From the NCBI GenBank assembly GCA_964646755.1, contig CAZYIE010000011.1, positions 4,681 through 68,680 on the forward strand: 64,000 nt of DNA, in the 5' to 3' direction. Within the stretch, counting starts at the first letter, position 1, and every line of letters starts with the position of its first letter. Positions 22,699 through 62,118 of this stretch are shown here, one piece after another. The notes under the pieces were generated by a model. It had not been told where the DNA came from. It made no database searches and saw nothing but the letters and a program-made list of their open reading frames with translations. Origin of the DNA: an uncultured Smithella sp. (GTDB lineage: Bacteria; Desulfobacterota; Syntrophia; Syntrophales; Smithellaceae). Made by a program: the position numbers and the translations under genes.

Positions 22699-22700
22699 TC

Positions 22701-24528: not shown

Positions 24529-24571
24529 GTAACGGAATAAAATTATTCCTAAAGAAGGAACTTTTGTAAAC

Positions 24572-37490: not shown

Positions 37491-38266
37491 ATTCGGATAA
37501 ATCAATGCAACTGGAGATAGCGGATCTTTCCATGAGCTTCGGTGGAATTAAGGCCATTCGGAATGTTTCCATCGGCGTGAAATCAGGGGAAATCTATTCG
37601 ATTATCGGGCCGAACGGGGCCGGCAAGACAACCATTTTCAATTGTATCAGCGGTATCTACAAGGCCCAGCAGGGCAGCATCCGGTTTGAAAATCGGGAGT
37701 TGCTTGGGGTCAAGCCGGACCGGATTGCGCAAATGGGTGTGGCCAGAGCTTTTCAGAACATTGCCCTTTTCAAGGGAATGACCGTTCTGGATAATCTGAT
37801 GTCCGCACGGGTCCATCTCATGAAATATGGACTTTTAGGGGCGGCCCTGTACCTTGGCAAATGCCAGCGGGAGGAGGTTGAAAACCGCGATGCCGTGGAA
37901 GATGTAATTGAGTTTCTTGATTTGCAGTCTGTGCGGAAGTCTCCCGTAAGCAGTTTGTCTTATGGCCTCCAGAAACGGGTGGAGCTGGCGCGCGCCCTGG
38001 CCATGAAACCGAAGATTCTGCTGGTTGACGAACCTGTCAGCGGAATGAATCTCGAAGAGCGCGAAGACATGGCGAGGTACATAATTGATATCAATGAAGA
38101 GATGGATATAACAGTTGTGCTGATCGAACATGACATGGGGCTGGTCATGGACCTGTCCGATCGAGTTACAGTCCTTAATTTCGGCACCAAAATCGCTGAA
38201 GGCACACCCGGAGAAGTGAGTGCGAATCCGGAGGTGGTCAAGGCTTACCTGGGAGATGAACAATGA
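37478..38266 (+). CDS. ABC ATPase (LivG-like), cassette B
   Basis: 262 aa. Walker A is GPNGAGKTT, the signature is LSYGLQK and Walker B is LLVDEP. It overlaps the preceding gene by 13 nt. Confidence 0.93.
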   Translation: MAVMNSDKSMQLEIADLSMSFGGIKAIRNVSIGVKSGEIYSIIGPNGAGKTTIFNCISGIYKAQQGSIRFENRELLGVKPDRIAQMGVARAFQNIALFKGMTVLDNLMSARVHLMKYGLLGAALYLGKCQREEVENRDAVEDVIEFLDLQSVRKSPVSSLSYGLQKRVELARALAMKPKILLVDEPVSGMNLEEREDMARYIIDINEEMDITVVLIEHDMGLVMDLSDRVTVLNFGTKIAEGTPGEVSANPEVVKAYLGDEQ

Positions 38267-38315
38267 GGGTCATGCGATCTTTAGCGACGATCAGCGTGTG
38301 GGGGGAGCAACATTC

Positions 38316-40127
38316 ATGGAGAGGGTAAATACGACATTACCGAAGCTGCTGCTGGAGAAAGCGGGGCTTTATCAAGACCGGGTTGCCATGCGCGAAAAAT
38401 TCAAAGGCATCTGGCAGGAAATCTCTTGGAATATGTACTTGGAAAAGGTCAGTGAATTCTGTTTGGGGCTTACGGACCTGGGCATGAAAAAAGGAGACCA
38501 GGCCTCGATTTTGGGAGAGAACTGCCCGGAATGGCTCTTTGCCGACTTGGGAATTCAGAGTCTGGGTGGTGTGGCAGTTGGTATTTATCCCACAAATTCG
38601 GCGGAGCAGGTCAAATATATTCTCGATCACTCCGAATCAAAGTTTGTTGTTGTTAAGGACCAGGAACAGGCAGACAAGGTACTGGCAGTAAAGGAAGAAT
38701 TGCCGCTGCTCAAAAAGATCATCGTCATCGACGTAAAAGGATTGCGTCACTACAATGAACCCCTGATCATTAGTTATAAGGATGTAGAAGCTTTAGGCAT
38801 AGAAGCCCTCCGGAAAGACCCGGCGGCTTTTACCCGTCTTGTTGAGCAGGGCCGGGCGGAGGATGTGGCTTTTATCGTCTATACGTCCGGAACAACGGGA
38901 CATCCCAAAGGCGCCATGCTTTCCCATCGGAATGTAATTCACCAGGCTGTCTATGCTCTGCAGCCGGTATTACACTTTACGGATCGGGATACTCTGCTCT
39001 CCTATTTGCCGCTGTGCCATATACTCGAGAGAAGCCTGACTATGAGCATGCCGCTGGTTTTCGGTTATACTGTAAGCTTTGCCGAATCGATCGATACGGT
39101 TCAGCAGAACATTCAGGAGATTCGCCCTTCTTTCTTTGCCGCCGTTCCGCGCATTTTGGAAAAACTTCACTCCGGCGTGCTAATCAAGATGGAAGACACG
39201 ACGCGTTTCAAGAAATTCATGTATAACTTCTGGCAGCCCGTAGGCTTGCGGGTATCGAGTTACCGAATGAACAACGAGAAGGTTCCGCTGCAATGGCTTT
39301 TGCTGTATGCGGTAGGTTATCTCTGGAGCTTTCGGTCCGTCCGCGACAAGGTCGGGATGCTCAATTGCCGGACTCTTATGAGCGGCGGCGCGCCTATTGC
39401 CCCGGAGGTCCTGACATTTTTCCGCTCGCTGGGTGTGCGAACCGTGGAAATGTATGGAGCTACGGAAACGTCCGGAACGATTTCCGGCCCCCATAAGAAA
39501 ATAAAACATGGATCTGTGGGTGAGCCTTGTCAAGGTTTGGAATTTCGACTGGCCGAGGATGGAGAAATTCATGTTAAGGGAGATTCCATCTTTGTCGGTT
39601 ATTATCGGGATGCCGAGGCCACATGTGAAGTTGTCCGTGACGGTTGGTATTGTACAGGGGATGTGGGCCAACTCGATGAAGACAATCACCTTTATATCGT
39701 TGATCGTAAGAAGGATATCATTATCACTTCCGGAGGAAAGAATATCTCTCCTTCGGAAATTGAAAACAAGCTTAAGTGCAGCATGTACATAAAAGAGGCT
39801 ATTGCCATTGGTGACCGCCGAAAGTATATCAGTGCGCTGATTCAGATCGATTACGAAAACGTGGGGAACTGGGCGCAGAAGAACAAAATTGCTTATACGA
39901 CCTATCGTAGTCTGGCGGAAAATCCCAAAGTCAAGGAACTGATTAAGCAGGAGATTGACGCGGCGAATGAAGGTCTGGCCAATGTGGAAAGTGTCAAGAA
40001 GTTCAAGATTCTGGAAAAGGAGCTAGACCAGGATGATGAGGAATTGACCGCCACGCAGAAAGTAAAGCGCAAGACCATTGAGAAGCGGTTTCAACAGGAG
40101 ATAGCGGAAATGTACGGCGGGCGCTGA
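38316..40127 (+). CDS. AMP-forming long-chain-type acyl-CoA synthetase (COG1022-like), cassette B
   Basis: Motifs YTSGTTGHPKGAMLSH, TGDVGQLDEDNHLYIVDRKKDIIITSGGKNISP and TQKVKRK. ATG 38316 after GGGGGGAG aligns best with the paralog N-termini. An upstream ATG at 38256 would overlap the livG-like stop. Confidence 0.9.
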   Translation: MERVNTTLPKLLLEKAGLYQDRVAMREKFKGIWQEISWNMYLEKVSEFCLGLTDLGMKKGDQASILGENCPEWLFADLGIQSLGGVAVGIYPTNSAEQVKYILDHSESKFVVVKDQEQADKVLAVKEELPLLKKIIVIDVKGLRHYNEPLIISYKDVEALGIEALRKDPAAFTRLVEQGRAEDVAFIVYTSGTTGHPKGAMLSHRNVIHQAVYALQPVLHFTDRDTLLSYLPLCHILERSLTMSMPLVFGYTVSFAESIDTVQQNIQEIRPSFFAAVPRILEKLHSGVLIKMEDTTRFKKFMYNFWQPVGLRVSSYRMNNEKVPLQWLLLYAVGYLWSFRSVRDKVGMLNCRTLMSGGAPIAPEVLTFFRSLGVRTVEMYGATETSGTISGPHKKIKHGSVGEPCQGLEFRLAEDGEIHVKGDSIFVGYYRDAEATCEVVRDGWYCTGDVGQLDEDNHLYIVDRKKDIIITSGGKNISPSEIENKLKCSMYIKEAIAIGDRRKYISALIQIDYENVGNWAQKNKIAYTTYRSLAENPKVKELIKQEIDAANEGLANVESVKKFKILEKELDQDDEELTATQKVKRKTIEKRFQQEIAEMYGGR

Positions 40128-40168
40128 GAGTCCCGCCGGGAGGAAAATTCAGAGAGGGTGTTGATATA

Positions 40169-41068
40169 ATGGAAAAAATTATCGAGATTCTGTTTAATGG
40201 TTTGTCCATGGGAGCGATTTACGCCCTGATGGCCCTGGGTTTTGTTCTCATCTTTAAATCGACAGGTGTGATTAACTTTGCCCAGGGCGAGTTAGCCATG
40301 GTGGGTGCTTTTATCTGTTACAGCTTTGCCACTATGATGAATGTTCCTTATATTTATGCCTTCTTTATAGCCTTGATCGGCGGCATCATTCTGGGTGCGG
40401 CAGTTTACCAGATCTTCTTTAGGACCATGGTGGGTGAACCACTGTTTTCCACGATCATGGTCACCGTAGGACTTGCCAGTATCCTGACGTGTCTCGCGGG
40501 GCTCATCTGGGGTCACGATGTCTATTCGCTTAGTTCCCCTTTTACAGACAAGGTCATTCACCTGGATAAAATTACCTTGGCCCAGGGTTCGATCTCCACT
40601 ATTATTGTATCTATCGTACTGTTTGTCGTCGTCATCCTGTTTTTTAGCCGCTCTCTGCTGGGAATCTCTATGCGGGGTTCGGCGGAAGACCCGGATACGG
40701 CGGGGCTCATGGGAATCAACGTGAAGAAAATTCACATGGTGGCCTGGGCATTGGGAGGGCTGGTGGCAGCTGTGGCCGGTATGTTCCTTGCGGAGCAGAG
40801 CTTTGTCCGTCTGGCGATGAGCCATGTGGGGCTTAAGGCCATGGCGGCGGCAATTCTCGGTGGAATGGAAAGCATCGGCGGTGCTATCGTGGGCGGCATA
40901 ATTATTGGTGTTGTCGAAGGGTTGGCGGCGAATTATCTAAGTGGCATGTCGCTGGGAAATTTCCACATGGGTGATATCAAGGACGTGGCCGCCTTTGCGA
41001 TTATGATCATCGTTCTGATGATCCGGCCGCACGGTATTTTCGGCAAGGAAAAAGTGGAAAGGGTGTAA
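40169..41068 (+). CDS. Liv-type ABC permease (LivH-like), cassette B
   Basis: 299 aa with the motif VINFAQGELAM. Confidence 0.9.
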   Translation: MEKIIEILFNGLSMGAIYALMALGFVLIFKSTGVINFAQGELAMVGAFICYSFATMMNVPYIYAFFIALIGGIILGAAVYQIFFRTMVGEPLFSTIMVTVGLASILTCLAGLIWGHDVYSLSSPFTDKVIHLDKITLAQGSISTIIVSIVLFVVVILFFSRSLLGISMRGSAEDPDTAGLMGINVKKIHMVAWALGGLVAAVAGMFLAEQSFVRLAMSHVGLKAMAAAILGGMESIGGAIVGGIIIGVVEGLAANYLSGMSLGNFHMGDIKDVAAFAIMIIVLMIRPHGIFGKEKVERV

Positions 41069-41076
41069 AAACGTTT

Positions 41077-42111
41077 ATGGCGAATTTTAAAGTCAGTTAC
41101 CGGGAAGATACAGCGCTTTTCCAGAACCTCTGGGTCAAGTCCTGGTTGGTAATATTTATCGTGGCGATGCTGGTGCTCCCTTTTCTGCTGTCTCGTTATC
41201 AGTTGAGCATTCTCGATGAGATGGGGATTGCCGTGATTGGCGCTTTGGGCCTCAATCTCCTGATAGGCTATACGGGGCAGATTTCGCTGGGGCACGGCGC
41301 CTTTGTCGCCATCGGTGCATATACATCTGGTTTGCTCGCCGGAACGCTGGGAGTGCCTTTCATAATTTCGCTGCCTCTTTCCGGCCTTATGGCCGCCTTG
41401 CTTAGCCTGATCGTGGGCGTTCCCTCTCTGCGGTTGAAAGGCCTTTATCTGGCCCTCGGGACATTGGCCTTTGGTTTTATCATCGAGTACATCCTGTTTC
41501 ACTGGGACCTTACCAGAGGAGATACGGGCATGGCCGTTCCGAAGATCGGAACGGAAGGCTTTTATATCGAAACGGAACGGCAGTTCTTTTTCCTGATCAT
41601 GTTTTTTGCGGTCATCGCGACACTTGTGGCGAAGAATCTTGCCCGGACGAAAATTGGACGCTCATTTGTAGCCATCCGCGATCGCGACATCGCGGCGGAG
41701 GCCATGGGGATTTCACTGGCTAAATATAAAATAATGGCGTTTGCTGTTGCCGCTTTTTATGCCGGTGTGGCGGGAAGTCTGATGGCTTACTACCAGAAAT
41801 GGATCGTGCCCGGAAACTTTGATATTACCTTGTCTATCGCCTATATTGCCATGATCGTTCTCGGGGGCATGGGTACTGTTCTGGGCTCCATTCTTGGAGC
41901 CATTTTGATCACCGGCATTCCCCACGCCATCGTTTACCTGACCGACGCACTTCGCGGTACTTATCCCAATCTCAGCAACTTGATCGTGGATTTGAAACTC
42001 GGCATCTTCGGTCTGGTCATTGTTTTAACACTCCTGTTCGAACCTCAGGGGCTTGTTGGCATCTATCGGCGTATCAAAATTTACTGGAAGACCTGGCCCT
42101 TTAAGTATTAA
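41077..42111 (+). CDS. Liv-type ABC permease (LivM-like), cassette B
   Basis: 344 aa with GYTGQISLGHGAFVAIGAY. The C-terminus is ...RIKIYWKTWPFKY. Confidence 0.9.
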   Translation: MANFKVSYREDTALFQNLWVKSWLVIFIVAMLVLPFLLSRYQLSILDEMGIAVIGALGLNLLIGYTGQISLGHGAFVAIGAYTSGLLAGTLGVPFIISLPLSGLMAALLSLIVGVPSLRLKGLYLALGTLAFGFIIEYILFHWDLTRGDTGMAVPKIGTEGFYIETERQFFFLIMFFAVIATLVAKNLARTKIGRSFVAIRDRDIAAEAMGISLAKYKIMAFAVAAFYAGVAGSLMAYYQKWIVPGNFDITLSIAYIAMIVLGGMGTVLGSILGAILITGIPHAIVYLTDALRGTYPNLSNLIVDLKLGIFGLVIVLTLLFEPQGLVGIYRRIKIYWKTWPFKY

Positions 42112-42370
42112 GTTTGTTGCAATGCTGGTACAACATTGATTTTAGAAGAGAATGCTTTATTTCAACCAGCGATAAATGATATAAATTACATTGATTATAA
42201 TGATAGGAATAGGTTGTTTTTATGAGGTGTTGAACTACACCATTGTATGGTCAAAATAATGTAGGATCGCCGGGAAAAAGGCGGCAAGAGGAGTATGTGA
42301 GACTTAACATTTAGCTGATGGAAAAGCCGGTCTGCCGGATCTGTCAATCCATGAAAGGAGCAAATTACCA

Positions 42371-43696
42371 ATGAAGAAGATTATGAGGGGAGTAGTATTA
42401 GCGGTGTTAACGATTCCCGTGTTCTGTGTTATTGTCTTTGCTCAGGCCCAGTCCCCGAAATTTCCCGACGCGGCGGCGTCAGATCCTGTAGTGCTCGGAT
42501 GGATGCAGGGTTTTCCACCCAAGGCTGACAAGATCATTCGCTTCGGTGATGTTAGCTTCTACCGTTTTCCCCAATCACGCTGGTCATTTAGCAACATGAG
42601 GCAGCTCGTTCCGACGGTTGCAGTTTCACGTGGTGATGGTCCGGTTACCCCACTGCCTCGCGCCGAGAGGACGGATCTGGATGCTGTGAAGTTTACGACC
42701 CTCGATGGCCGGGAAATGACGTGGGGTGAGTCGATCGCAGCGAACTACACCGACGGCATCGTTGTGCTGCACAAAGGCAGGATCGTATATGAGAAATTCT
42801 TAGGCGCTTTCAGCCCGATTAAGCTGCATTGGGCGGCGTCGGTAACGAAGTCCTTTGTGGGCACCCTCGCCGCCATTCTTGTTGACGAGGGCAAGCTTGA
42901 TCCTGAGGCTCTCTGCTCGAAATATGTGCCGGAACTCAAGGATACCGCTTACGCCGACGCGACGCTCCGGCAGGTTATGGATATGACGGTCAGTGTGAAG
43001 TTTTCGGAAGTCTATGCCGACCCGAAGGCCGACATTTGGGTTTTTGCAAGGGCCACCGGAATGTTTCCGCTGCCGCCGAACTATGATGGTCCGCGCAATA
43101 CCTATGACATGCTCCTCGCACTCACCAAGCAGAAAAATGGCGAACATGGGGAGAGGTTTACCTATAAGAGCGTCGATCCCGAAGTTTTGGCCTGGATTAT
43201 TAGCCGTGTCTCGGGGAAATCTCTTGCTGAACTCACCTCAGAAAAGATATGGACAAAACTCGGCGCTGAGCACGATGCCTGCTACTGGGTAGACAGCATT
43301 GGTGTGAATTTGGCAGGCGGGGGCCTGAACACGTCACTGCGTGATCTCGCCCGATTCGGGGAGATGCTGCGTCTGGACGGCTACTACAACGGACAGCAGA
43401 TTGTCCCCCGCTCTGTTGTGGCTGATATACGCCGTGGCGCCGACAAGGGAAACTTTGCCAAAGCCGGTTATAAAACTCTGCCCGGATGGTCTTACCGGAA
43501 CTTCTGGTGGGTGTCGCACAATGAACATGGCGTCTACACTGCGCGCGGAGTTCACGGGCAGCTCATCTGGATCGATCCAAAGGCAGAAATGGTGATTGCC
43601 CGGTATGCATCTTATCCCATAGCATCGAACCCTCTCATCGATCCCACGTCATTGCCGGCTTATATGGCCATAGCAAAGCACCTGATGAAGGACTAG
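42371..43696 (+). CDS. exported serine hydrolase of the beta-lactamase/transpeptidase-like (class C / esterase) family
   Basis: 441 aa. A signal peptide ends ..VFAQAQS. The SxxK motif is ASVTKSF. GAAAGGAG RBS is present. It lies between the permease and SBP genes of cassette B. Confidence 0.8.
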   Translation: MKKIMRGVVLAVLTIPVFCVIVFAQAQSPKFPDAAASDPVVLGWMQGFPPKADKIIRFGDVSFYRFPQSRWSFSNMRQLVPTVAVSRGDGPVTPLPRAERTDLDAVKFTTLDGREMTWGESIAANYTDGIVVLHKGRIVYEKFLGAFSPIKLHWAASVTKSFVGTLAAILVDEGKLDPEALCSKYVPELKDTAYADATLRQVMDMTVSVKFSEVYADPKADIWVFARATGMFPLPPNYDGPRNTYDMLLALTKQKNGEHGERFTYKSVDPEVLAWIISRVSGKSLAELTSEKIWTKLGAEHDACYWVDSIGVNLAGGGLNTSLRDLARFGEMLRLDGYYNGQQIVPRSVVADIRRGADKGNFAKAGYKTLPGWSYRNFWWVSHNEHGVYTARGVHGQLIWIDPKAEMVIARYASYPIASNPLIDPTSLPAYMAIAKHLMKD

Positions 43697-43802
43697 TCCA
43701 GTGAAAGACGTAATAAGTAGCCTCGGAGGCCGGTCGTTTCCGCCGGCGTCGAAAAGTCCAAATAGATTAGTGTCAAAATCGATGTCAATGGTTGTTTGCA
43801 CC

Positions 43803-43835
43803 GTCCCTGTCCCCGTTCCACAGCGGGACAGGGAC
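43803..43835 (+). other. perfect 11-bp stem-loop between the hydrolase and SBP genes
   Basis: GTCCCTGTCCC, an 11-nt loop, then GGGACAGGGAC. There is no U-tract. Confidence 0.6.
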
Positions 43836-43874
43836 ACTAATAATATTGACCATATTATAAAAAGGAGGAAGTAT

Positions 43875-45086
43875 ATGAAAATTAGATTGTGGGGATTAAG
43901 CTTGATGTTGGCGGTTGTCTTGTGTCTGTCGGTGCAGAGCGCCTGGGCGGCAACCGTGCGCGGCGTTACAGATAAGGAAATCAAAATAGCCTGTCTCGTC
44001 GACCTTTCCGGACCGGGGAAATACGGCGGCCCGCCTATTGCCGATGCTTTTCGTGATTATGTGGCCTGGGTCAATGATACGGGTGGAATTAGCGGCAGAA
44101 AAATCAATCTGATTGTCGAGGACAACGGGATCCTTCCCACCACAACGATGAATGCGGCCAAGAAAGTGATTCTGAAAGATGAGGTTTTGGCCATTGCCTT
44201 CAACCTGGGCAGTGCTGGTTCCAGCGCGATCGTGCCCCTGTGTGCCGAGAACAAGGTTGTCCTTATGCCCCACGGGGCCAACAAGGGATTCTATCATCCC
44301 GGCAATAAATGGGTCTTCGTGCCCCATACGGTTCAGTTCGGTATGGCTTCCCGGGCGGTTGAGTATATTCTGAGTAAAAATAGCAAGGCGCGGATCGGAG
44401 TCATTTATCAGGATGACGATTTTGGCAAAGAAGGGCTGGAGGGAGCAAGCGCGGCTGCCACGTTCATGAAGACGAAGCTGGTGGCACAGGCTCCTTACAA
44501 GACCGGTACGATCGATTTCACACCGCATATGAATGCCATGAAGGAAGCCAACGTGGACGCAATCGTCCTTTGGACTTACCTGCCCCAGTCAGCAGCGATC
44601 ATTAAACAGAAGGTCAAGATGGCCTGGGATGTTCAGTTGATATCGAACAATACCACGGGCGTCCCGCCGCTCTTTGCTCTGACCGGTGAGGCGGCAGACG
44701 GCTATATGCTGGTCACGCCTTACGCGCCGGGGCACACCGATCTACCGGGGATTAAACGCATCAAGGAGATTAACAAGAAGTACGGCAATGCCGCCAAGAC
44801 CCTGGAAAATCCAGCGTACCCGGACTATCTGTACCTGGCCGGTTGGGGATACATTGAAGCCATGGCCCAGGGGCTGCGCAAGGCCGGTAGGGATTTGAAT
44901 CCCGAGACTTTGGTGAAAGGACTGGAAAGCGTCCATAATTTTGATATGGGCGGTCTGTGTCCAAACATTACTTTTGGACCCAAGCAGCATGTGAGCAGTT
45001 TCTCCAGCCTGATCCTCAAGGCGGACGGAAAAGCCAAGCGTTTTGTCATTGTCGATTCGATTAAGGCGCCTAAGACGCCGCAGTAG
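43875..45086 (+). CDS. periplasmic substrate-binding protein (type I PBP, LivK-like), cassette B
   Basis: ATG 43875 follows AAAGGAGGAA. The signal peptide is MKIRLWGLSLMLAVVLCLSVQSAWA and VNDTGGISGRKI is present. The track ORF's upstream extension from 43701 has no support. Confidence 0.9.
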   Translation: MKIRLWGLSLMLAVVLCLSVQSAWAATVRGVTDKEIKIACLVDLSGPGKYGGPPIADAFRDYVAWVNDTGGISGRKINLIVEDNGILPTTTMNAAKKVILKDEVLAIAFNLGSAGSSAIVPLCAENKVVLMPHGANKGFYHPGNKWVFVPHTVQFGMASRAVEYILSKNSKARIGVIYQDDDFGKEGLEGASAAATFMKTKLVAQAPYKTGTIDFTPHMNAMKEANVDAIVLWTYLPQSAAIIKQKVKMAWDVQLISNNTTGVPPLFALTGEAADGYMLVTPYAPGHTDLPGIKRIKEINKKYGNAAKTLENPAYPDYLYLAGWGYIEAMAQGLRKAGRDLNPETLVKGLESVHNFDMGGLCPNITFGPKQHVSSFSSLILKADGKAKRFVIVDSIKAPKTPQ

Positions 45087-45530: not shown

Positions 45531-46295
45531 GTGGATACATCCTATTTATCATTGGAAGGGAAAGTTGCAGTTGTTACCGGAGGAAGCCGGGGCATTGGTG
45601 AGGCGATAGCATTGGTTTTTGCTGATGCAGGAGCCGATGTGGCTATTTGTAGCCGTAAACTGGAAGATCTGGAAAAGGTTGCTGTGAAAATCAGGGCCAT
45701 GGGACGTAAAGCCCTTGCCGTGCCTATGCACAACCGGGAAATAGACAGTATAAAGAACGGAATTGATGCTATCGTCAAAGAATTCGGGCGGATTGATATT
45801 CTGGTGAATAATGCGGCCACCAATCCCGGCATGGGCTACCTCGTTGATATGGACGAGAAAATGTACGACCAGATCATGGTCACTAACCTCAAGGGTTATA
45901 CCGTCATGAGCCAGCTGGTGGGCAAGATTATGCGCGAGCAGAAGAGCGGCAATATAGTTAATGTCTCTTCTGTCGGCGGCGTAAGTCCCGATAAAGGTTT
46001 GGGATTGTATTGCATTAGTAAAGCCGGCATCGGCATGCTGACCCGCGCTATGGCCAAAGAAATGGGTGAATTCGGTATCCGTGTGAACTGTATCGCACCG
46101 GGTGTGACAAGGACTAAATTCAGCAAAGCTCTGTGGAGCAACGAAGAGATGATGAAGGTGGAAATGGCTCATATGCCGATTAAACGTGTTGCCGAGCCGG
46201 TAGAAATGGGTCGTATAGCATTATTTCTCGCTTCGGAGGCCTCGGCTTACATGACGGGACAGATTCTTGTTGCGGACGGTGGCGGATCAATTTAG
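45531..46295 (+). CDS. short-chain dehydrogenase/reductase (3-oxoacyl / 3-hydroxyacyl reductase-like)
   Basis: 254 aa. Motifs are TGGSRGIG, NNAA and the catalytic S...YCISK. Confidence 0.9.
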   Translation: MDTSYLSLEGKVAVVTGGSRGIGEAIALVFADAGADVAICSRKLEDLEKVAVKIRAMGRKALAVPMHNREIDSIKNGIDAIVKEFGRIDILVNNAATNPGMGYLVDMDEKMYDQIMVTNLKGYTVMSQLVGKIMREQKSGNIVNVSSVGGVSPDKGLGLYCISKAGIGMLTRAMAKEMGEFGIRVNCIAPGVTRTKFSKALWSNEEMMKVEMAHMPIKRVAEPVEMGRIALFLASEASAYMTGQILVADGGGSI

Positions 46296-46418
46296 TTGTG
46301 TCCGGGGCAACATGGTTTCCTGAAAGAGAAAGGAAAACCGGAAGAACTAAGGTCAGAACTGAAGTGTAAGGCAATAAATATTTCAGAAGAGTCAAAAAAT
46401 CAGGAGGTATAAATTACA

Positions 46419-47864
46419 ATGGGCTTAATGACAGCAGATCAATATAGAGAGAGTTTAAACGACGGCAGGGTTGTCTATTACAAAGGCAAGAAGATCGATA
46501 ATGTTTGCGACCATCCCCATCTCGCTGCCTGCGTCAATACGGTGGCCGTGGATTATGAAATGGCCCACGATCCGCAGTACAAGGATCTGGCACTGGTTTA
46601 CGATGAAGAACTCAAAGAAAATATCAGCAGATACAACCATATCCCCAAGAACGGCCAGGATCTGTTGAAGCACCTGGAGCTTATCATCAAGGCAACGGAA
46701 CTGGGGCAAGGATACATTCCCCTGGCCCACGATATCGGCGCCGATGCCATGAACGCCATTGCCATTACGGCCAGGACCATGGGCGAGGCCGGCAAGGTGT
46801 ATGCCGAACGTATCGAAAAATACAGAAAATACTTAAAGCAGACTGATAAATGCGTCGTGGCGGGAGTGACTGATGCCAAAGGCGACCGGCATCTGAAGCC
46901 TTCCGATCCGGGGCAGGCGAATCCCGACTTTCAAGTGCGTCTGGTCAGCAAAGATGATAAAGGGATTATCGTTCGGGGCGCCAAGGTTCATATTACCGGA
47001 GCTGCCTACTGTAACGAATTCTTCGTTATCCCCTGTAAGGCCATGAGTTCTCCCGAGGAAGCTCCCTACGCAGTAGCATTTGCCATCCAGGCCAATGCCA
47101 AGGGGATCCGGCAGATCGTCCGTCCATTCAATGGCCGGATCAGTGATGACGAGTTTCCCCTGGACTCACCGTTGAGAATGATGCACACGGACTCCCTGAT
47201 TATCTTTGATGATGTTTTTGTGCCCTGGGACAGGGTGTTCCTTTGCGGTGAGTGGAAGTTTGCGGCCACCATGGTTTATAATTTTGCGCTGATGCATCGC
47301 CGGACAGGATGCGCCTATCGCATTCCAATGAGCGAGCAACTGCTGGGTATTGCCCAGGCTATCGCCGAGTATAACGGCGTGGCCGACGCCCCCCACGTTA
47401 AGGAAAAGATCACGGAGATCGTAATCTATCTCGAGACGCTCAATGCACTGTCGCGGTCGGCCTGTCTGGATTTCGTGGATCATGCCGGCATTCCCGTTCC
47501 TAATCCCATTACAACAAATATCGCCAAATACCATTTTGCTCACAACTACCACAAGATTTGCGAGATCATTCAGGATCTGGCCGGTGGGCTTCTGGTTACC
47601 GCGCCGACTTACAGAGACTGGATGAACCCCGAAACGCACGAGGACATCAAGAAGTACCTCCAGGGCAGTGCAAAAGTTCCGACGGAGCACAGACTGCGGA
47701 TGTTTGATTTGGTTCGCCGATTGACCGCAGGTGATCTGGAAACGATTTGTCTCCACGGAGAGGGTTCACCCTTTGCGGAAAGAATGACCATTCTGATGGA
47801 AGCGCGAAAGACCATCGCCCGCTGCAAGGCGCTTGCCGAGGAAATGGCAGGTATCAAGAAATAA
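46419..47864 (+). CDS. 4-hydroxybutyryl-CoA dehydratase / vinylacetyl-CoA isomerase (AbfD)-HpaB family protein
   Basis: 481 aa. The N-terminus MTADQYRESLNDGRVVYYKGKKIDNV.DHP and the C-terminus ...AEEMAGIKK closely parallel AbfD as I recall it. AGGAGG RBS is present. Confidence 0.8.
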   Translation: MGLMTADQYRESLNDGRVVYYKGKKIDNVCDHPHLAACVNTVAVDYEMAHDPQYKDLALVYDEELKENISRYNHIPKNGQDLLKHLELIIKATELGQGYIPLAHDIGADAMNAIAITARTMGEAGKVYAERIEKYRKYLKQTDKCVVAGVTDAKGDRHLKPSDPGQANPDFQVRLVSKDDKGIIVRGAKVHITGAAYCNEFFVIPCKAMSSPEEAPYAVAFAIQANAKGIRQIVRPFNGRISDDEFPLDSPLRMMHTDSLIIFDDVFVPWDRVFLCGEWKFAATMVYNFALMHRRTGCAYRIPMSEQLLGIAQAIAEYNGVADAPHVKEKITEIVIYLETLNALSRSACLDFVDHAGIPVPNPITTNIAKYHFAHNYHKICEIIQDLAGGLLVTAPTYRDWMNPETHEDIKKYLQGSAKVPTEHRLRMFDLVRRLTAGDLETICLHGEGSPFAERMTILMEARKTIARCKALAEEMAGIKK

Positions 47865-48032: not shown

Positions 48033-48941
48033 ATGGTGCCCCGAATTTCAACAGAATTCACGGCTATGATGGGAATTCGTTATCCGATTATCGGGGCGCC
48101 AATGTTTTTAGTATCATATGAAGAACTAGTGGTTGCCGTCTGCAATGCCGGAGGATTGGGGATGCTTCCCCTGCCGAATTATCGCACGACGGAACAGTTG
48201 CGGCAGGCCATGGAGGTTATCCGTTCCCAAACGGAGGCGCCGGTGGGTGTCAATATTCATCTCTCCGGGAAGTTTCCCTGGCAGGAACAACTCTCCATCT
48301 GTCTCGATTACGGTGTCAAATTTTTCATTACATCCCTGGGAGATCCCCGTCTGATTCTGGATGCCGTGCATGCCGGCGGGGGATTGGTATTTGCTGATGT
48401 TGTTTCCCTGGCCCAAGGGCGTAAAGCCCGCGAGGGAGGAGTAGATGGCCTGGTGGCTGTAGGGGCCGGGGCCGGGGGCCATGGCGGGCGGGTGTCCACA
48501 CTTATTCTCGTGCCCTATCTTAGAGAGAAAATCGGACTGCCCGTTGTTGCGGCCGGGGGAATCAGTACAGGAGCGCAGATGGCCTCAGCAATTGCCTGCG
48601 GCGCCTGTGCGGTGATCGTGGGGACGCGACTTGTCGCCACACCCGAATCCCGCGCATCCGATGCCTACAAACAGGCGCTTATAGATACTGATCCCGAGGG
48701 GATAGTCTGTACAAACCGGGTAACTGGAAACCCGGCGAACTGGATCGCAGCAAGTATCGCGGATATAGAGGAGAGGCCGCCGCTGACGTCGAAAAAATGG
48801 CTCGATTTCTGGAGTGCCGGGCAGAGCGTGGCCCAGGTGCAAGATATAAAACCGGCGGCACAGATTGTCGCCGAAATGGTAAATGAATATTGCGAAACGT
48901 GCCGGCGGCTGCCGGGCACGATGATGTCAGAAGAATTGTGA
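48033..48941 (+). CDS. nitronate monooxygenase / FabK-like FMN enoyl reductase family protein
   Basis: 302 aa. Motifs are YPIIGAPM, AGGLGMLP and AAGGISTG. Confidence 0.82.
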   Translation: MVPRISTEFTAMMGIRYPIIGAPMFLVSYEELVVAVCNAGGLGMLPLPNYRTTEQLRQAMEVIRSQTEAPVGVNIHLSGKFPWQEQLSICLDYGVKFFITSLGDPRLILDAVHAGGGLVFADVVSLAQGRKAREGGVDGLVAVGAGAGGHGGRVSTLILVPYLREKIGLPVVAAGGISTGAQMASAIACGACAVIVGTRLVATPESRASDAYKQALIDTDPEGIVCTNRVTGNPANWIAASIADIEERPPLTSKKWLDFWSAGQSVAQVQDIKPAAQIVAEMVNEYCETCRRLPGTMMSEEL

Positions 48942-48960: not shown

Positions 48961-50145
48961 ATGAGTAAACTGAAAGGTAAGGCGGCGTTCATTGGGATCG
49001 GCGAGGTTCCCACAGGACGCTTTCCGGAGACAGCGGCGATCTATCATGCGATAGAATCAGCTAAGCTGGCGATACGTGATGCGGGAATAAACAAGGATGA
49101 GATTGATTATGTGCTGCCGACGGCAGCCCTGTATAGTCCTGCATTCAATACGGAGCTGGTGACGTGCCGTGTTGTGGAAGAACTGGGATTGAAAAATGTG
49201 AAGAAGAACTGCCAGTTATTCGCGGGTGGATCAAGCAGCACTTGCATCACGGAGGTCGCGGCAAGTCTGATTAACAGCGGCGCGGCAAATACGATTTTAT
49301 TCGTTCATGCGGACCGGTTGGGAACGGGAGTAACCGCCCAGGGCGGCATTGACCTGTTCTCGACGGCGGGAATATCGGCGGAGTGGGAAGTGCCCTTCGG
49401 TCAGCACTATTCGGCGATAGCGGCGCTGTCCACAATGCGTTACAAACATGAGACGGGATGCACGGATGAACAACTGGCGGCGGTCTGTGTTTCGAATCGC
49501 AAATGGGCGCTGTTGAATCCCAATGCTTTTTTTAATAAACCGTTGACAATAGAAGAGGTGATGGCATCGAAAATGCTGTCAACGCCGCTGCGGGCGAAGA
49601 TGTCGAATATGTTGTTCGACGGCGGCTGTGCTTTTATTATAACGTCGGCTGAGCGTGCCCGCGCTGTTGCGAAGAAACCGGTATATCTGCTGGGCGAAGG
49701 TGGTGTGGTGACACACTTCGTGTTTTCCCAGGAGCCGGATGTGGCGCGTTTCGGTTGGGCGCGAGCGGGAAAGGCCGCGTTCGAGATGGCGGGGCTTACG
49801 CCGCAGGACATGGATATTGCGGAGATTTATGATTCCTATCCTATCTATCAGATGATCGGTTTTGAAGAGCTGGGCTTTGCCAAGCGTGGCGAGGGTGGCG
49901 AGATGTTCCTGCGCGGCGATACTTGGCCCGGTGGTAAGATGCCGACGACGACCAATGGCGGGATGCTGTCCCAGGGTCATACAGGCGCGGGCGGAGCCTG
50001 CGCCCTGATGGTGGAGACAGTGCGTCAGTTGATGGGCAAAGCCGGAGATCGTCAGGTTAAGGATGCGAAATTCGCCGTGGAAACGGCTGTTGGAGGGACC
50101 TACATGGATGCCCAGGTGACAATTCTGGGGACAGAAATTCCGTAG
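48961..50145 (+). CDS. SCP-x/Ltp-type thiolase-fold protein, partner of the downstream DUF35 protein
   Basis: 394 aa. Contains NGGMLSQGHTGAGGA. The expected nucleophile region reads FAGGSSSTC. AAGGAGG RBS is present. Confidence 0.85.
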   Translation: MSKLKGKAAFIGIGEVPTGRFPETAAIYHAIESAKLAIRDAGINKDEIDYVLPTAALYSPAFNTELVTCRVVEELGLKNVKKNCQLFAGGSSSTCITEVAASLINSGAANTILFVHADRLGTGVTAQGGIDLFSTAGISAEWEVPFGQHYSAIAALSTMRYKHETGCTDEQLAAVCVSNRKWALLNPNAFFNKPLTIEEVMASKMLSTPLRAKMSNMLFDGGCAFIITSAERARAVAKKPVYLLGEGGVVTHFVFSQEPDVARFGWARAGKAAFEMAGLTPQDMDIAEIYDSYPIYQMIGFEELGFAKRGEGGEMFLRGDTWPGGKMPTTTNGGMLSQGHTGAGGACALMVETVRQLMGKAGDRQVKDAKFAVETAVGGTYMDAQVTILGTEIP

Positions 50146-50164
50146 GATGAAAGGAGATAAGAAG

Positions 50165-50584
50165 ATGGATACACCCGTAAAACCAAAACCGGTTCCCGTA
50201 GTTAATCCCTGGGCGAAGCCCTTTTGGGATGCTGCCCGGGAAGAGAAACTGGTTATTCAGCATTGCAAGGACTGTGGGGCGAATATTTTTTATCCGCGGA
50301 TTGCCTGTCCGAATTGTTTTTCGGATAATGTAGAGTGGATTCAGGCATCGGGGAAAGCGACAGTTTATACTTACACGGTCGTGGAGAGCAATCCCCCGTC
50401 GGCTTTTATTGTTGATCTGCCGTATGTAGTAGCGGTGGTGAAACTGGCGGAAGGGGTTCAGATGTTGAGCAATATTGTGGGTTGCAAGCCGGAGGATGTG
50501 CGTTGCGACATGCCTGTGGAGGTAGTGTTCGAGACGCTCAACGAGGAGTTTAAGCTTCCCAAGTTCCGTCCTGTAAGTAAATAG
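50165..50584 (+). CDS. DUF35 Zn-ribbon plus OB-fold protein
   Basis: The Zn ribbon is CKDCGANIFYPRIACPNC and the OB segment is GKATVYTYTVVES...VVAVVKLAEGVQ. ATG 50165 follows AAAGGAGA. The track start is at 50147. Confidence 0.85.
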   Translation: MDTPVKPKPVPVVNPWAKPFWDAAREEKLVIQHCKDCGANIFYPRIACPNCFSDNVEWIQASGKATVYTYTVVESNPPSAFIVDLPYVVAVVKLAEGVQMLSNIVGCKPEDVRCDMPVEVVFETLNEEFKLPKFRPVSK

Positions 50585-50612: not shown

Positions 50613-51062
50613 ATGACGCAGAAATATTACGAAGATTTTGATATCGGGTTTAATTTCAAGACGCTGTCCATTACGGTGACGGAAACGCACGTGGTAAACT
50701 GGGCCGGTCTGACGATGGATTTTTACCCGCTGCATATGGACGCTGAGTTTTGTGCAAAGACGGTATTTAAGGAGCGGATCGCCCATGGTCCTTTGATTTT
50801 CGGCATGGCCGTCGGTATGGCTGGTCTGGCGAAAATGGAAGGTGGTTCGATCATTGCCTGGATGGGTGCGGATAAAATGCGGATGCTGGCCCCGGTAAAG
50901 TTCGGGGACACGATTACGCTCTATGTGGAAGTTGTGGAGCGCAAAGAAACGAGTAAACCGTCGCAGGGGTTGCAGACTTGGCGCTATACTGTGAAGAACC
51001 AGCGCGACGAGGCCGTCATGGTTTTCGATATGAAGTTTCTCATGCAACGGAAGGCTGTATGA
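50613..51062 (+). CDS. MaoC-like (R)-specific enoyl-CoA hydratase (single hot-dog fold)
   Basis: 149 aa. Contains TVTETHVVNWAGLTMDFYPLHMD...AHG. AAGGAGAG RBS is present. Confidence 0.85.
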   Translation: MTQKYYEDFDIGFNFKTLSITVTETHVVNWAGLTMDFYPLHMDAEFCAKTVFKERIAHGPLIFGMAVGMAGLAKMEGGSIIAWMGADKMRMLAPVKFGDTITLYVEVVERKETSKPSQGLQTWRYTVKNQRDEAVMVFDMKFLMQRKAV

Positions 51063-51132: not shown

Positions 51133-52281
51133 GTGGATTTTAATTTTACAGATAAGCAGAATACATTGCGTGACAAGGTGCGGGGATATGTAGATAACAA
51201 TATTGCCCCGGCCTTGATCCGAGAAATTGAAGAAAAGGATGAGTTCCCCCATGATCTGGTGAAGAAATTTTGTGATCTGGGTCTGGCCAAAGTCAATATA
51301 CCTGAGGCTTACGGTGGTCTGGGAGGCGACATCGTGGATCTGATGATTGTCTTTGAGGAGATCGCTAAAAAACTTCCGGTGCTGTGCTGGAACCTGGGCA
51401 ACATCCTCTTGTATGGCAATGAAATTATCGGCGTTAACGGTAATCAGGAACAAAAGGACGAATTCCTGCCGAAACTGGCCGCAGGCGAAATCATGTTCAG
51501 TTTTGCCATTACGGAACCGAACGCCGGGTCCGATGCCGCCAGTATTAAAACGCGGGCGTTTTTCGAAAACGGGCATTACGTGATCAATGGCGGCAAGATG
51601 TTCATTACCGGTGCGGGGGTTTCGACTTATGCGGTGACGTTTGCCCGGACGGCTGAATCTAAATACAATGGGATCACGTCTTTTATCGTGGACAAGTCCC
51701 TGGAAGGCTACAGCGCTAAAAACATCAAGAAGCTCGGCTTTCACGGCTCCAATACCTGTGAAGTGGTCTATGACAACGTCCGGGTCTTGCCGCGTTTTAT
51801 CCTGGGCGGAGAAGAAAAGGGGCTTAACAACGGCTGGAAACAGGAGATGAAGCTTCTGAATCAGGAGCGACTCGTTCTGTCATCAATGACATTGGGGATG
51901 GCGCAAGCCTCGTTCGATGAGGCTCTGAAGTTCGCCCGCGAGAAGATGAAGCGGACTGCTCCGTCAACGGATGTGCAGTCCATTCAGCACGACATCGCCG
52001 AAATGGCGTCCGAACTGGAGGCGATGAAGGTGCTGGCTTACAGCACTGCCTGGAAAGAAGCGCAGGGTATGGACCCGGTGCGGGAAACCTCTATGACCAA
52101 GTACTTCTGCGCGGAAACGGCCAAGCACATAATCATGAAGGGCATGAACGTCCTGGGTGCCAGCGGCGCTTCGATGGATTACGATATGCAGAGAAACCTG
52201 AGAGAAATTCTCATTTTTTCCATCGGCGGCGGTACTTCACAGATCCAGAAGAACATTATCTGCAAGACGTTCGGACTGTAA
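51133..52281 (+). CDS. acyl-CoA dehydrogenase (standard ~380 aa form)
   Basis: 382 aa with a GTG start after GGAAGGAG. Contains FAITEPNAGSDAAS and SIGGGTSQIQKNII. Confidence 0.92.
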   Translation: MDFNFTDKQNTLRDKVRGYVDNNIAPALIREIEEKDEFPHDLVKKFCDLGLAKVNIPEAYGGLGGDIVDLMIVFEEIAKKLPVLCWNLGNILLYGNEIIGVNGNQEQKDEFLPKLAAGEIMFSFAITEPNAGSDAASIKTRAFFENGHYVINGGKMFITGAGVSTYAVTFARTAESKYNGITSFIVDKSLEGYSAKNIKKLGFHGSNTCEVVYDNVRVLPRFILGGEEKGLNNGWKQEMKLLNQERLVLSSMTLGMAQASFDEALKFAREKMKRTAPSTDVQSIQHDIAEMASELEAMKVLAYSTAWKEAQGMDPVRETSMTKYFCAETAKHIIMKGMNVLGASGASMDYDMQRNLREILIFSIGGGTSQIQKNIICKTFGL

Positions 52282-52307: not shown

Positions 52308-54317
52308 ATGGGACAGATTTTTGCCTGTGAAAATCAGGATGGTATAGCCGTGGTAAGGTTTGATGTACCCGGCGAACAGATGAATACATGGACAGAAGGA
52401 GCCATTGCGGATTTTAACACTATGCTGGCATTCCTGGAAAAAGAGAAAAGCGCTTATAAAGGGGTGATCTTCATATCCGGCAAAGCTTCTAATTTTCATG
52501 CCGGCGCCAATCTCAATATGTTGGGATCGGAGAAGAATCTCGACGACTTCCGTAAAGGGTGCGATGAGTTCAACGGCATGTTTGTCCGTCTGGAGAATCT
52601 CGGGATTCCTACAGTGGCCGCCATTAATGGCCCCTGCATGGGTGGAGGTTACGAATTTGCCCTGACGATGATGGCACGGATGGCGACCGACAGCAAGCGA
52701 ACTACCATCGGCCTGCCCGAGTGTAACGTAGGAGTTATCCCCGGAGCGGGTGGCACGCAGCGTCTTCCCCGCCTGATCGGTTATCCTGCTCTGGATTTTA
52801 TTCCCCGAGGCGCGGTACTTCCGGCGGCCAAGGCAATGGAAGCAGGCATGATCGACCGGGTCATCCCGGAGGCGGACGATCTGCTGGCGAAAGCGAAAGA
52901 ATTTTTATTGGAAATAGTTGCCGGTACGGCCGGATTAAAGCGGGCGAAACCGGATCTTTCCTCTCTGGATGCAGCCCTGGAGGCGGCAAAGAAGAATGTT
53001 CTGAAGGCGACGCGGGGCCGGGCAATTCCGGCGCCGATGCTGGCCCTCAAGGCCATGAGCGAAGGTTTGAAGGTGTCGATCGAACAGGGCCTGAAAATTG
53101 AAACGGATTGTTTTATCGAAGCACTGAAAGCCCCTGAATCCAAGGGAACGATTAACACGTTCTTCCTGAAAACAATGTCCGACAAGCCGAAGGCAATGAT
53201 ACCCAAAGGCTTCGAACCCAAACCCATCCGGAAATTCGGTGTGCTCGGTTTCGGCACGATGGGGCGGGGGATCATTATCAACATCCTTATCCGTACCAAA
53301 CTGCCGGTTGTCGTCAAGGATGTTCCCGAGGCACTGGAGCCGGGAATGGCATTCATCCGCGGTATTCTTGAGGGCATGGCGGCAAAGAAGCGGCTGAAGG
53401 ACCCTGTCGAAAGCCTGATGGCCCTGGTGAAACCTGTGGCAGAATGGACGGATGATTTCAAAGATGTCGACGTGGTCATCGAAGCCGTTTTCGAAGATCC
53501 CGCCATCAAGGATAAGGTCTACAAGGAACTGTGCCAGGTTGTGGCGAAAGACTGTCTGCTCGCGACAAATACATCGAGTCTGCCGGTAGACAAGCTCGCG
53601 GGAAGCGTCCTGAATCCGGATCGTTTTATCGGCGCCCATTTCTTCTCTCCAGTCTGGATGATGGAACTCCTGGAGGTGATCCGTGGCAAAGAGACCAGCG
53701 AGGCCACGGTGAACAACATGCTGGCGGTCTGTGCAGCTCTAGGCAAGCGCCCGGTTGTCTGCAACGACAACCCCGGATTCGTGGTTAATGCGATGCTCTT
53801 CCCCTACTTTATCAAATCCTTTGAGCTCCTGGCGGAAGGTGTGGCGATGGAAAAGATCGATGCCGCCATGATGAAGTTCGGCCTGCCGGTGGGTCCCATC
53901 CGTCTGACCGACGAGGTTGGGATTGACGTATCCTATCTAGTCCTGACGAAATCTTTAGGAATGGTGCCGCCTGTGGCCCTGGAAAATATTTATAAGGCCG
54001 GTCGTTACGGACGCAACAAAAACGGCAAGGGATTTTATACTAAGGAAGGCGCCCCCGATCCGGAGGCTCTGCCCCTGGTTAACCCGGACAATAAACAAAA
54101 GGAATATTCTGTAGCCGAGCTGCAGGAAATGCTCTTTACCCCCTTTGTCCAAACCGGATATGAGCTCTTGCAAAAGAAGGTAGTTAGTGATCCCCGGTCG
54201 ATCGATATCGGCGCCATTTGGGGAGTCGGCTTCCCCTCGGACAAGGGAGGTCCGATGAAATGGGCCGATCTTATCGGTTTGAGTGAGAAGCTTTATGGAA
54301 AGAAATTTTATAAATAA
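52308..54317 (+). CDS. bifunctional enoyl-CoA hydratase (N-terminal) / 3-hydroxyacyl-CoA dehydrogenase (C-terminal), FadB-type order
   Basis: 669 aa. The crotonase region is FHAGANL...CMGGGYEFAL. The Rossmann motif is FGVLGFGTMGRGI. Confidence 0.9.
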   Translation: MGQIFACENQDGIAVVRFDVPGEQMNTWTEGAIADFNTMLAFLEKEKSAYKGVIFISGKASNFHAGANLNMLGSEKNLDDFRKGCDEFNGMFVRLENLGIPTVAAINGPCMGGGYEFALTMMARMATDSKRTTIGLPECNVGVIPGAGGTQRLPRLIGYPALDFIPRGAVLPAAKAMEAGMIDRVIPEADDLLAKAKEFLLEIVAGTAGLKRAKPDLSSLDAALEAAKKNVLKATRGRAIPAPMLALKAMSEGLKVSIEQGLKIETDCFIEALKAPESKGTINTFFLKTMSDKPKAMIPKGFEPKPIRKFGVLGFGTMGRGIIINILIRTKLPVVVKDVPEALEPGMAFIRGILEGMAAKKRLKDPVESLMALVKPVAEWTDDFKDVDVVIEAVFEDPAIKDKVYKELCQVVAKDCLLATNTSSLPVDKLAGSVLNPDRFIGAHFFSPVWMMELLEVIRGKETSEATVNNMLAVCAALGKRPVVCNDNPGFVVNAMLFPYFIKSFELLAEGVAMEKIDAAMMKFGLPVGPIRLTDEVGIDVSYLVLTKSLGMVPPVALENIYKAGRYGRNKNGKGFYTKEGAPDPEALPLVNPDNKQKEYSVAELQEMLFTPFVQTGYELLQKKVVSDPRSIDIGAIWGVGFPSDKGGPMKWADLIGLSEKLYGKKFYK

Positions 54318-54400
54318 TAACTGAATCGTCAGCCGCCGGATCGCCCGCTTATTTTTAGAAACGAACGATCCGGATGACCGGCGAAAAGAGGAGGACTATT

Positions 54401-57480: not shown

Positions 57481-57504
57481 ACTTTATTATTGAGGAGGCG
57501 ACGT

Positions 57505-58698: not shown

Positions 58699-58713
58699 GG
58701 TGATTTGAAGAAA

Positions 58714-59466: not shown

Positions 59467-59467
59467 A

Positions 59468-62053: not shown

Positions 62054-62118
62054 ACGGGATCGTGCCTCATCGTTGGAGGCCGGGCCGATACCTTTATGCA
62101 AAGTGAGAATGAATTCCT

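Follow-up and report, generated by a model that had tools for sequence, protein, structure and literature searches.

4-Hydroxybutyryl-CoA dehydratase (AbfD) is the textbook example of a radical dehydratase that uses both a flavin and a [4Fe-4S] cluster. In the Clostridium aminobutyricum enzyme, the cluster is held by Cys99, Cys103, Cys299 and His292, the Tyr296/Glu455 pair is important for dehydratase activity and is tied to radical formation, and Thr190 and Glu257 form the flavin N5 pair, with Thr190 hydrogen bonded to N5 (as quoted in bioRxiv 10.1101/2020.02.05.935528). The isomerisation of vinylacetyl-CoA is a second activity of AbfD, and this has also been shown for the Nitrosopumilus enzyme. 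Metagenome surveys also take the AbfD gene as a marker of 4-hydroxybutyrate carbon-fixation cycles (e.g. PMC11216029). Here, an AbfD homologue (the query) from an uncultured Smithella sp. is analyzed. Its gene lies in a stretch of 64,000 nucleotides of contig CAZYIE010000011.1 (assembly GCA_964646755.1), which is called the window in what follows. Judged from alignments, the encoded protein belongs to a large lineage of its own, without the Cys ligands of the cluster, and is not an AbfD that lost them recently, and its chemistry is almost certainly different from that of 4-hydroxybutyryl-CoA dehydratase.

The ORF is genuine: it is preceded by a strong ribosome-binding site, and the N-terminus of the 481-residue protein, MGLMT, is common to all of its homologues. 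The protein matches two Pfam families above the gathering score, HpaB_N (266.5 bits, 3.9e-79) and HpaB_C (184.9 bits, 1.2e-54), of which AbfD itself is also a member. When all PDB chains were searched with phmmer, the top match was C. aminobutyricum AbfD (1u8v, E=3e-70; query residues 3–480 on AbfD residues 2–490), followed by the Nitrosopumilus 4-hydroxybutyryl-CoA dehydratase (6vjr, 4e-65). HpaB oxygenases appear from 1e-49, with a match that ends at query residue 436, while the AbfD match runs to the last residue. Identity to AbfD is 30–32%, end to end. An initial annotation, made from the sequence alone, had noted this end-to-end parallel, including an N-terminal MTAxQYxESL...DHP and a C-terminal AGIK, and all three are seen in the phmmer alignment, the N-terminal stretch as MTAdQYrESL...DHP. 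An AlphaFold2 model of the query has a predicted local distance difference test (pLDDT) score of 86, and Foldseek places it closest to 1u8v and 6vjr (TM-score 0.86), followed by HpaB structures (0.83–0.85) and acyl-CoA dehydrogenases (ACADs; 0.4–0.58). Binding of flavin adenine dinucleotide (FAD) and CoA is predicted on the basis of homology, and the functional statements below rest on sequence, model and genomic context.

To locate the catalytic columns, the AbfD sequence was rebuilt from the phmmer alignment. C99, C103, H292, C299, T190, E257, Y296 and E455 all land on their published numbers, which bears out the ligand numbering given in the initial annotation. Conservation was read from 120 close homologues that are 64–98% identical to the query. 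The segment that takes the place of the AbfD CxxxC pair, ELGQGYIPLAHDIGADAMNAI, had been described as free of Cys, and it is. The Cys residues of the query are at positions 30, 38, 145, 198, 206, 276, 298, 349, 381, 444 and 469. As residues 39–144 hold none, the CxxxC pair is missing whichever alignment is used. Furthermore, 0/120 close homologues have a Cys in residues 85–125, so that the Cys-free segment is a fixed trait of the family and not a chance or sequencing event; Asp105 is present in 120/120.

The second ligand site gives a different result for its two residues. The initial annotation had read LMHRRTGCAY as retaining a His...Cys pair and had concluded that two of the four ligands were lost. 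HMMER and MAFFT agree that His293 lies on AbfD H292, that Cys298 lies on G297, two residues before the ligand column, and that the ligand column itself (C299) is occupied by Tyr300. The His of the proposed pair therefore stands and the Cys does not. Loss of ligands is upheld, but the count rises: according to the alignment, three of the four [4Fe-4S] ligands (C99, C103 and C299) are absent at the homologous positions and only the His is kept. Conservation among the close homologues is strong at His293 (119/120), at Tyr300 (120/120) and at Arg301 in the K300 column (119–120/120), while Cys298 is replaced by Ser in 8/120 and by Val, Ile, Leu or Ala in distant members of the clade. The columns of the Tyr296/Glu455 pair hold Gly297 (119/120) and Ile443 (119/120). 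Of the flavin N5 pair, the T190 column holds Thr193 (Thr in 92 and Ser in 28 of the 120) and the E257 column remains acidic as Asp258 (119/120).

The wider family was examined in an alignment of 123 sequences comprising the query, close homologues, 50%-identity cluster representatives, AbfD, the Nitrosopumilus enzyme and Thermus HpaB. It resolves into three groups: the HpaB-like oxygenases, a CxxxC...H...C group that includes true AbfD (c3), and a Cys-less group that includes the query (c2). Trees were made by neighbor joining only, with capped distances and 200 bootstraps. The split of c2 plus c3 from HpaB and the position of the query's group outside the Fe–S clade c3 were each recovered in 200/200, whereas c2 was recovered as one group in 116/200; the Cys-less group may thus be a grade and not a clade. 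Five motifs that HpaB oxygenases lack are common to c2 and c3, including AbfD: T[DC]xKGDR, H292-R293, N367xxK370, D386-IAGGL and H458-G-x-G-S. The residue equivalent to His293 has a frequency of 1.00 in c2 and is invariant in c3 as well. The invariants specific to c2 that differ from c3 are Tyr300 (Cys299 in c3), Tyr337 (Leu336 in AbfD) and Glu448 (Ala460 in AbfD).

No Cys reaches 85% conservation in c2. Together with the absence of ligands C99, C103 and C299 and of the Tyr296/Glu455 pair, this supports the view of the initial annotation that the protein would be a flavin-only acyl-CoA enzyme and not a radical dehydratase; as it had also anticipated, alignment to AbfD does not place Cys at all of the ligand positions. 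Recent ligand loss or a pseudogene was considered and rejected, as the 120 homologues share the Cys-less state together with strong conservation. On a narrower scale, C38, C206, C276, C298, C349 and C469 are kept in 25–27 of 27 orthologues, but other members of the Cys-less clade do not conserve them. Of these, C298 and C349 may lie next to each other on adjacent helices; possible purposes are disulfide formation, metal binding or redox sensing.

The Cys-less type is widespread. A sample of 93 family genes, taken from one-genome-per-species contigs, contained 43 of the c2 type, 35 full Fe–S AbfD types and 12 of a third type. Hosts of c2 genes include Syntrophaceae, Desulfomonilaceae, Dehalococcoidia, Ardenticatenales, Binatia, Methylomirabilota, Tepidiforma, Freyarchaeota (Asgard) and Bathyarchaeia. 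Homologues of the Archaeoglobus fulgidus type were considered as c2 members and rejected, since the Archaeoglobales loci are full Fe–S types (CCHYC..E..A). Several paralogues per genome and tandem copies occur (L013, L014, L043 and L065); on the Freyarchaeota chromosome (L013, 9956–13207), two tandem Cys-less copies with ~51% identity to the query are followed by genes for short-chain dehydrogenases/reductases (SDRs). The source annotations of these proteins are AbfD, "HpaB N-terminal domain-containing protein" or hypothetical. As 43/93 of the sampled genes are Cys-less, including genes from Asgard and Bathyarchaeia genomes, pathway calls made by homology alone are at risk.

The third subgroup is found in Desulfatitalea alkaliphila, Smithellaceae, Promethearchaeota CR_4 and others (loci L026, L027, L033, L036–L038, L040, L041, L043, L044 and L081; protein P0126). 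Its members have a Cys in the C103 column, His292, a GTCK motif and a Glu in the A460 column, and they lack C99. The GTCK motif is probably C299-K300, shifted by one in the MAFFT alignment. Read in this way, the subgroup could be an intermediate that combines three ligands with the ACAD base.

A Glu at the position of that base is also carried by the Cys-less lineage. Glu448 is present in 120/120 close homologues and has a frequency of 1.00 in c2, while c3 has Ala or Gly in the same column. When hhalign was used to compare the family with a profile built from 29 ACADs, the probabilities were 93% for c2 and 98% for c3. Query HGEGS and AbfD HGAGS were both aligned on ACAD IYEGT, with the top posterior confidence digit (9) at Glu448, and the TDxKGDR motif was aligned on the ACAD signature TEPxAGSD. 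The homology is remote. In comparison to ACADs such as medium-chain acyl-CoA dehydrogenase (MCAD) and the butyryl-CoA dehydrogenases 1buc and 4l1f, identity is ~16% and the query is ~100 residues longer; among the Pfam ACAD domains, the middle domain alone matches, with 20 bits against a cut-off of 33.3, and the N- and C-terminal domains give no match. Shared with ACADs are the aligned catalytic Glu and the acyl-CoA genomic setting. The query carries one ACAD hallmark, the catalytic Glu, and is not an ACAD by domain models. Nor does it have what defines AbfD (three of the ligands, Y296/E455 and the pathway context) or HpaB (equivalog scores, substrate motif, reductase partner and phylogeny).

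Because the Cys-less lineage keeps the ACAD base that AbfD lacks (Ala460), it more likely never had the cluster than lost it, an argument made by parsimony without an ACAD-rooted tree. With a large, conserved sister lineage that has the ACAD Glu in place of the cluster, the origin of the radical dehydratase from ACAD-like ancestors can be tested concretely. The same lineage could be used to test which of the activities of AbfD require the cluster.

What reaction the protein catalyzes can be proposed with less assurance. The assignment preferred here, tentatively and with slightly less confidence than doubt, is that of a cluster-free AbfD-fold flavoprotein (with FAD, by homology) that acts on an acyl-CoA thioester as a delta3-to-delta2 enoyl-CoA isomerase. 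Glu448 would take the alpha-proton at C2 of an enoyl-CoA held against oxidized FAD, and the resulting dienolate would be re-protonated at C4 from the His293/Tyr300 side of the pocket. The net result would be a redox-neutral shift of the double bond from beta,gamma to alpha,beta. This shift is the second known activity of AbfD, and we infer that it does not need an iron–sulfur cluster. For the variants E449Q, Y299F, E260Q and T194V, the methods describe isomerase assays with 10–75x less enzyme than the dehydratase assays. Isomerisation thus seems less dependent on the dehydration residues, as far as enzyme amounts given in a methods section can be read in this way. The proposed reaction is also catalyzed by crotonase-family isomerases such as enoyl-CoA isomerase (ECI) and FabM, which have an unrelated fold and no flavin. 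FabM is encoded beside FabK in streptococci, and the AbfD-like gene likewise adjoins a FabK-like gene.

In the cell, the isomerase would have an auxiliary role, in partnership with the NADP-type SDR encoded next to it and with the FabK-like reductase. The trio would supply the co-encoded beta-oxidation set of a Syntrophales-type anaerobe with unsaturated and/or branched intermediates. This set comprises two ACADs with a base of the long-chain acyl-CoA dehydrogenase/isovaleryl-CoA dehydrogenase (LCAD/IVD) type, a MaoC hydratase, an SCPx thiolase with DUF35, FadB and a CoA ligase. Beta-oxidation genes flank the AbfD-like gene on both sides, and auxiliary roles fit because the core cycle of beta-oxidation is complete without the AbfD-like gene, the SDR and the FabK-like protein. 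Several points weigh against the isomerase assignment. An alpha,beta-dehydrogenase would account for a Glu at the canonical ACAD base position no less well than an isomerase does. Isomerisation of 3-enoyl-CoA is already within the reach of FadB-type proteins, which may make a dedicated isomerase redundant. Nor is the SDR, which is of the classical YxxxK carbonyl-reductase type, obviously a dienoyl-CoA reductase, and the strong association of the orthologues with a CrtI-like flavoprotein (8/13 loci) hints at some other chemistry. Moreover, the HGEGS loop (residues 439–450) is the poorest region of the AlphaFold2 model, with pLDDT <50. Finally, full-text literature searches returned no characterized member of the Cys-less clade and no paper on Cys-less AbfD homologues or on an SDR/CrtI-like/AbfD-like gene cluster.

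The location of Glu448 at the ACAD catalytic-base position, which the initial annotation had not noticed, makes a dehydrogenase about as plausible as the isomerase that the annotation had suggested, although, taken by itself, it is still an unlikely identity. The protein would then be an acyl-CoA dehydrogenase with the AbfD fold or, if it runs in reverse, an enoyl-CoA reductase. Glu448 would take the alpha-proton and the beta-hydride would pass to FAD N5 as in MCAD, with electrons leaving via electron transfer flavoprotein (ETF) or another partner. Its substrate would come from the co-encoded pathway and be a branched or bulky acyl-CoA. The high posterior confidence of the Glu448 alignment, the TDxKGDR/TEPxAGSD correspondence and the retention of Thr193, the counterpart of the T190 that hydrogen bonds to flavin N5, all agree with this, and the multiple paralogues and tandem copies resemble substrate-diversified ACAD families. 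On the other hand, the cluster already has two ACADs, no ETF genes were identified beside the gene in a scan that covered part of the window's open reading frames (ORFs), and no member of the AbfD/HpaB branch is known as a dehydrogenase. Furthermore, simple alpha,beta-dehydrogenation leaves the invariant His293, Tyr300 and Tyr337 in the former cluster pocket without a role. Those residues would have one in a cluster-free gamma-(de)hydratase or gamma-eliminase, an improbable reading in which the SDR reduces a 4-oxoacyl-CoA to a 4-hydroxyacyl-CoA, and the gamma-substituent is then removed or, in reverse, added. Here, C2 would be the site of action of Glu448, the flavin would pass through a reduced or radical state, and His293, Tyr300 and Tyr337 would be the general acids that replace the iron as Lewis acid. 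Consistent with this, the SDR looks like an NADPH carbonyl reductase and is the one neighbor that recurs across the whole Cys-less clade, and polar residues (Y300 and H293, plus D105 in the orthologues) fill the ligand columns that face C4 in AbfD. Flavin-only elimination at C4 also occurs in LvaC and ACAD10/11. A precedent within the ACAD superfamily is BbuA, the gamma-butyrobetainyl-CoA trimethylamine-lyase, which performs gamma-carbon chemistry on an acyl-CoA with flavin and no Fe–S cluster, but is ~10% identical to 4-hydroxybutyryl-CoA dehydratase and belongs to a different superfamily branch (PMC8364193). BbuA, LvaC and ACAD10/11 are precedents in concept from that different branch, and these enzymes act on good leaving groups: hydroxide is a poor one, whereas the known flavin-only eliminases use trimethylamine or phosphate. 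In addition, no kinase is conserved nearby in the orthologous loci and the Y296/E455 pair of AbfD radical formation is absent. In an equally doubtful extension, the Cys-less lineage could be the link in evolution between ordinary ACADs and the radical Fe–S dehydratase and do flavin-only gamma-carbon chemistry on acyl-CoAs. This could be the reversible dehydration of 4-hydroxy/4-oxo-acyl-CoA or another C4 elimination in a fixed pair with the NADPH carbonyl-reducing SDR, and it could combine the ACAD Glu at C2 with a His/Tyr/Tyr acid–base set where AbfD holds its [4Fe-4S] Lewis acid.

Two further readings retain a metal or use oxygen, and both are far less probable. A cluster or another metal could be bound through other ligands, namely C298 and C349 (plus C38, C206, C276 and C469) together with His293, and we regard this as very improbable. 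The six Cys are the ones kept among the orthologues, C298 is on the His293 helix, and C349 is on a helix judged from the secondary structure of the model to be its antiparallel neighbor. Set against this, none of the six is conserved beyond the orthologues, and C298, which is not itself invariant, is two residues out of register with the C299 position that Tyr300 occupies. An O2-dependent, two-component flavin monooxygenase of the HpaB type is suggested by the formal domain matches, which are to Pfam HpaB_N and HpaB_C, and by the close fold (TM-scores as given above). The scores against the NCBIfam equivalogs are far under the cut-offs, however (TIGR02309, 207.5 against 480.2; TIGR02310, 112 against 885.2). 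In Thermus thermophilus HpaB (2yyg), Arg100 and Tyr104 of the GRSPDY motif are the phenol/substrate-binding residues. The query reads PLAHDI in those columns, so that Arg and Tyr are absent and only the Asp column is shared, with the Asp105 of the orthologues; HpaB F-x-G-D-P is H-G-E-G-S in the query, and other HpaB motifs are likewise missing, with AbfD-specific motifs in their place. The separation from HpaB sequences in the tree is complete (see above), no flavin reductase partner of the Flavin_Reduct type was found by Pfam among the scanned window neighbors, and the hosts of the orthologues belong to anaerobe lineages (Syntrophales, Desulfobacterales and Dehalococcoidia). With motifs, thresholds, tree and context all opposed, the monooxygenase is the least probable of the readings and is rejected.

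The AbfD-like gene is part of a same-strand run without convincing terminators between the genes (Table 1). The run begins with a Liv-type ABC transporter and an AMP-binding protein, followed by a beta-lactamase-family hydrolase and a binding protein, the SDR and then the AbfD-like gene; on its 3' side are the FabK-like protein of the NMO family, the SCPx thiolase, DUF35 and MaoC genes and, finally, an ACAD, a FadB-like protein, a CoA ligase and a second ACAD. The SDR is presumably NADP(H)-preferring, as read from its TGGSRGIG and CSRK motifs with established SDR cofactor rules. Assignment of this protein to the dienoyl-CoA reductase (DECR) type was considered and is unsupported, as its best matches are DHRS4 and FabG. 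A Pfam scan of 40 window neighbors found no 4-hydroxybutyrate genes (CoA-transferase, 4-hydroxybutyrate dehydrogenase or succinic-semialdehyde dehydrogenase), a further difference from AbfD.

Table 1. Positions of the AbfD-like gene, its key segments and its neighbors in the window.
Feature	Position	Strand	Basis and remarks
SDR, 254 aa, classical YxxxK, DHRS4/FabG-like	45531..46295	+	TGGSRGIG and CSRK
Shine-Dalgarno GGAGG	46403..46407	+	11 nt 5' of ATG; read from sequence
Cys-less AbfD-like flavoprotein gene (clade c2)	46419..47864	+	ORF, 481 aa; Pfam HpaB_N and HpaB_C; best solved relatives 1u8v, 6vjr
Residues 94–114, ELGQGYIPLAHDIGADAMNAI, in place of AbfD C99xxxC103	46698..46760	+	Cys-free; C99 at a gap, C103 at Asp105
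Residues 291–300, LMHRRTGCAY	47289..47318	+	His293 at AbfD H292, Gly297 at Y296, Tyr300 at C299; Arg301 next, at K300
Tyr337 (AbfD Leu336)	47427..47429	+	1.00 in clade c2; variable in c3; 120/120 close homologues
Residues 446–450, HGEGS; Glu448 at AbfD A460 column	47754..47768	+	hhalign of c2 and c3 profiles against ACAD profile; on catalytic Glu of ACAD YEGT
FabK-like FMN enoyl reductase (NMO family)	48033..48941	+	Pfam NMO; PDB FabK match 7e-38; TIGR03151 below cut-off
SCPx-type thiolase	48961-50145	+	Trio with DUF35 and MaoC, same in orthologous loci
DUF35 zinc-ribbon/OB protein	50147-50584	+	Part of thiolase/DUF35/MaoC trio
MaoC-type R-hydratase	50613-51062	+	Part of thiolase/DUF35/MaoC trio
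First ACAD	51133-52281	+	Order kept in L004-L006, L087-L089
FadB-like hydratase/dehydrogenase	52308-54317	+	Order kept in L004-L006, L087-L089
Acyl-CoA ligase	54374-55984	+	Order kept in L004-L006, L087-L089
Second ACAD	56075-57217	+	Order kept in L004-L006, L087-L089

Conservation of the neighborhood was assessed in orthologues of at least 56% identity, which gave 13 non-redundant loci, some of them on short contigs. Within 3 kb, the most constant neighbor is an SDR (10/13), followed by a CrtI-like flavoprotein of the amine-oxidase family (8/13) and an SCPx thiolase (7/13). NMO and ACAD genes are found within 9 kb in 11/14 loci, the window itself included. Conserved synteny is seen in Syntrophales, Desulfobacterales, Chloroflexota and Desulfovirgula. 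The simple ORF caller gave spurious antisense ORFs in high-GC loci, and those that overlapped the central gene were removed before a Pfam census was made near distant c2 genes. Among the 125 neighbor ORFs from 26 loci in that census, SDR was the sole recurrent family (7 ORFs). The orthologues mark a conserved, uncharacterized catabolic gene cluster in anaerobic degraders (Syntrophales, Desulfobacterales and Chloroflexota). Besides the AbfD-like enzyme, it encodes an SDR, a CrtI-like flavoprotein, a FabK-like reductase and a beta-oxidation set of a kind that suits branched substrates.

The CrtI-like partner is a protein of 460–540 aa from the CrtI/amine-oxidase family, encoded directly beside the orthologue (L001, L002/L003, L004–L006, L007–L010 and L012). 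It has no close solved structure, and its matches are confined to the N-terminal dinucleotide fold. The gene is absent from the window and from the closest Syntrophales relatives (L087–L089), which are 80–98% identical. In two of these, an HMG-CoA-synthase-like/DUF35 OB fusion of 488 aa and a thiolase of 402 aa are encoded directly 3' of the AbfD-like gene (L087, 11580–14258; L088, 11607–14284), an arrangement that is absent in the window.

Both ACADs of the cluster have GGGT instead of the canonical YEGT and so are without the usual catalytic Glu. A Glu is found in a QERL or AEHL stretch, which we take to be the alternative base position of the LCAD/IVD type, equivalent to MCAD T255. ACADs of this type typically take branched or bulky substrates.

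Other features of the window lie further from the AbfD-like gene. The gene for the beta-lactamase-family serine hydrolase (42371–43696) is located between the permease and binding-protein genes of an ABC operon, and it is absent in the collinear loci L088 and L089. Three sets of Liv-type ABC transporter genes (20744–27964, 36696–45086 and 57490–63099) are interleaved with beta-oxidation genes, and each includes an AMP-binding protein of ~600 aa with an AMP-binding_C_3 domain. Beta-oxidation genes upstream of the cluster are unusual in their architecture. A thiolase-like protein of 538 aa (28146–29762) has the TLP1 C-terminal domain as its only recognized domain. It is followed by a long-form ACAD of 621 aa (30238–32103) and by a protein of 831 aa (32128–34623) in which the dehydrogenase domain precedes the hydratase domain, the reverse of the order in FadB.

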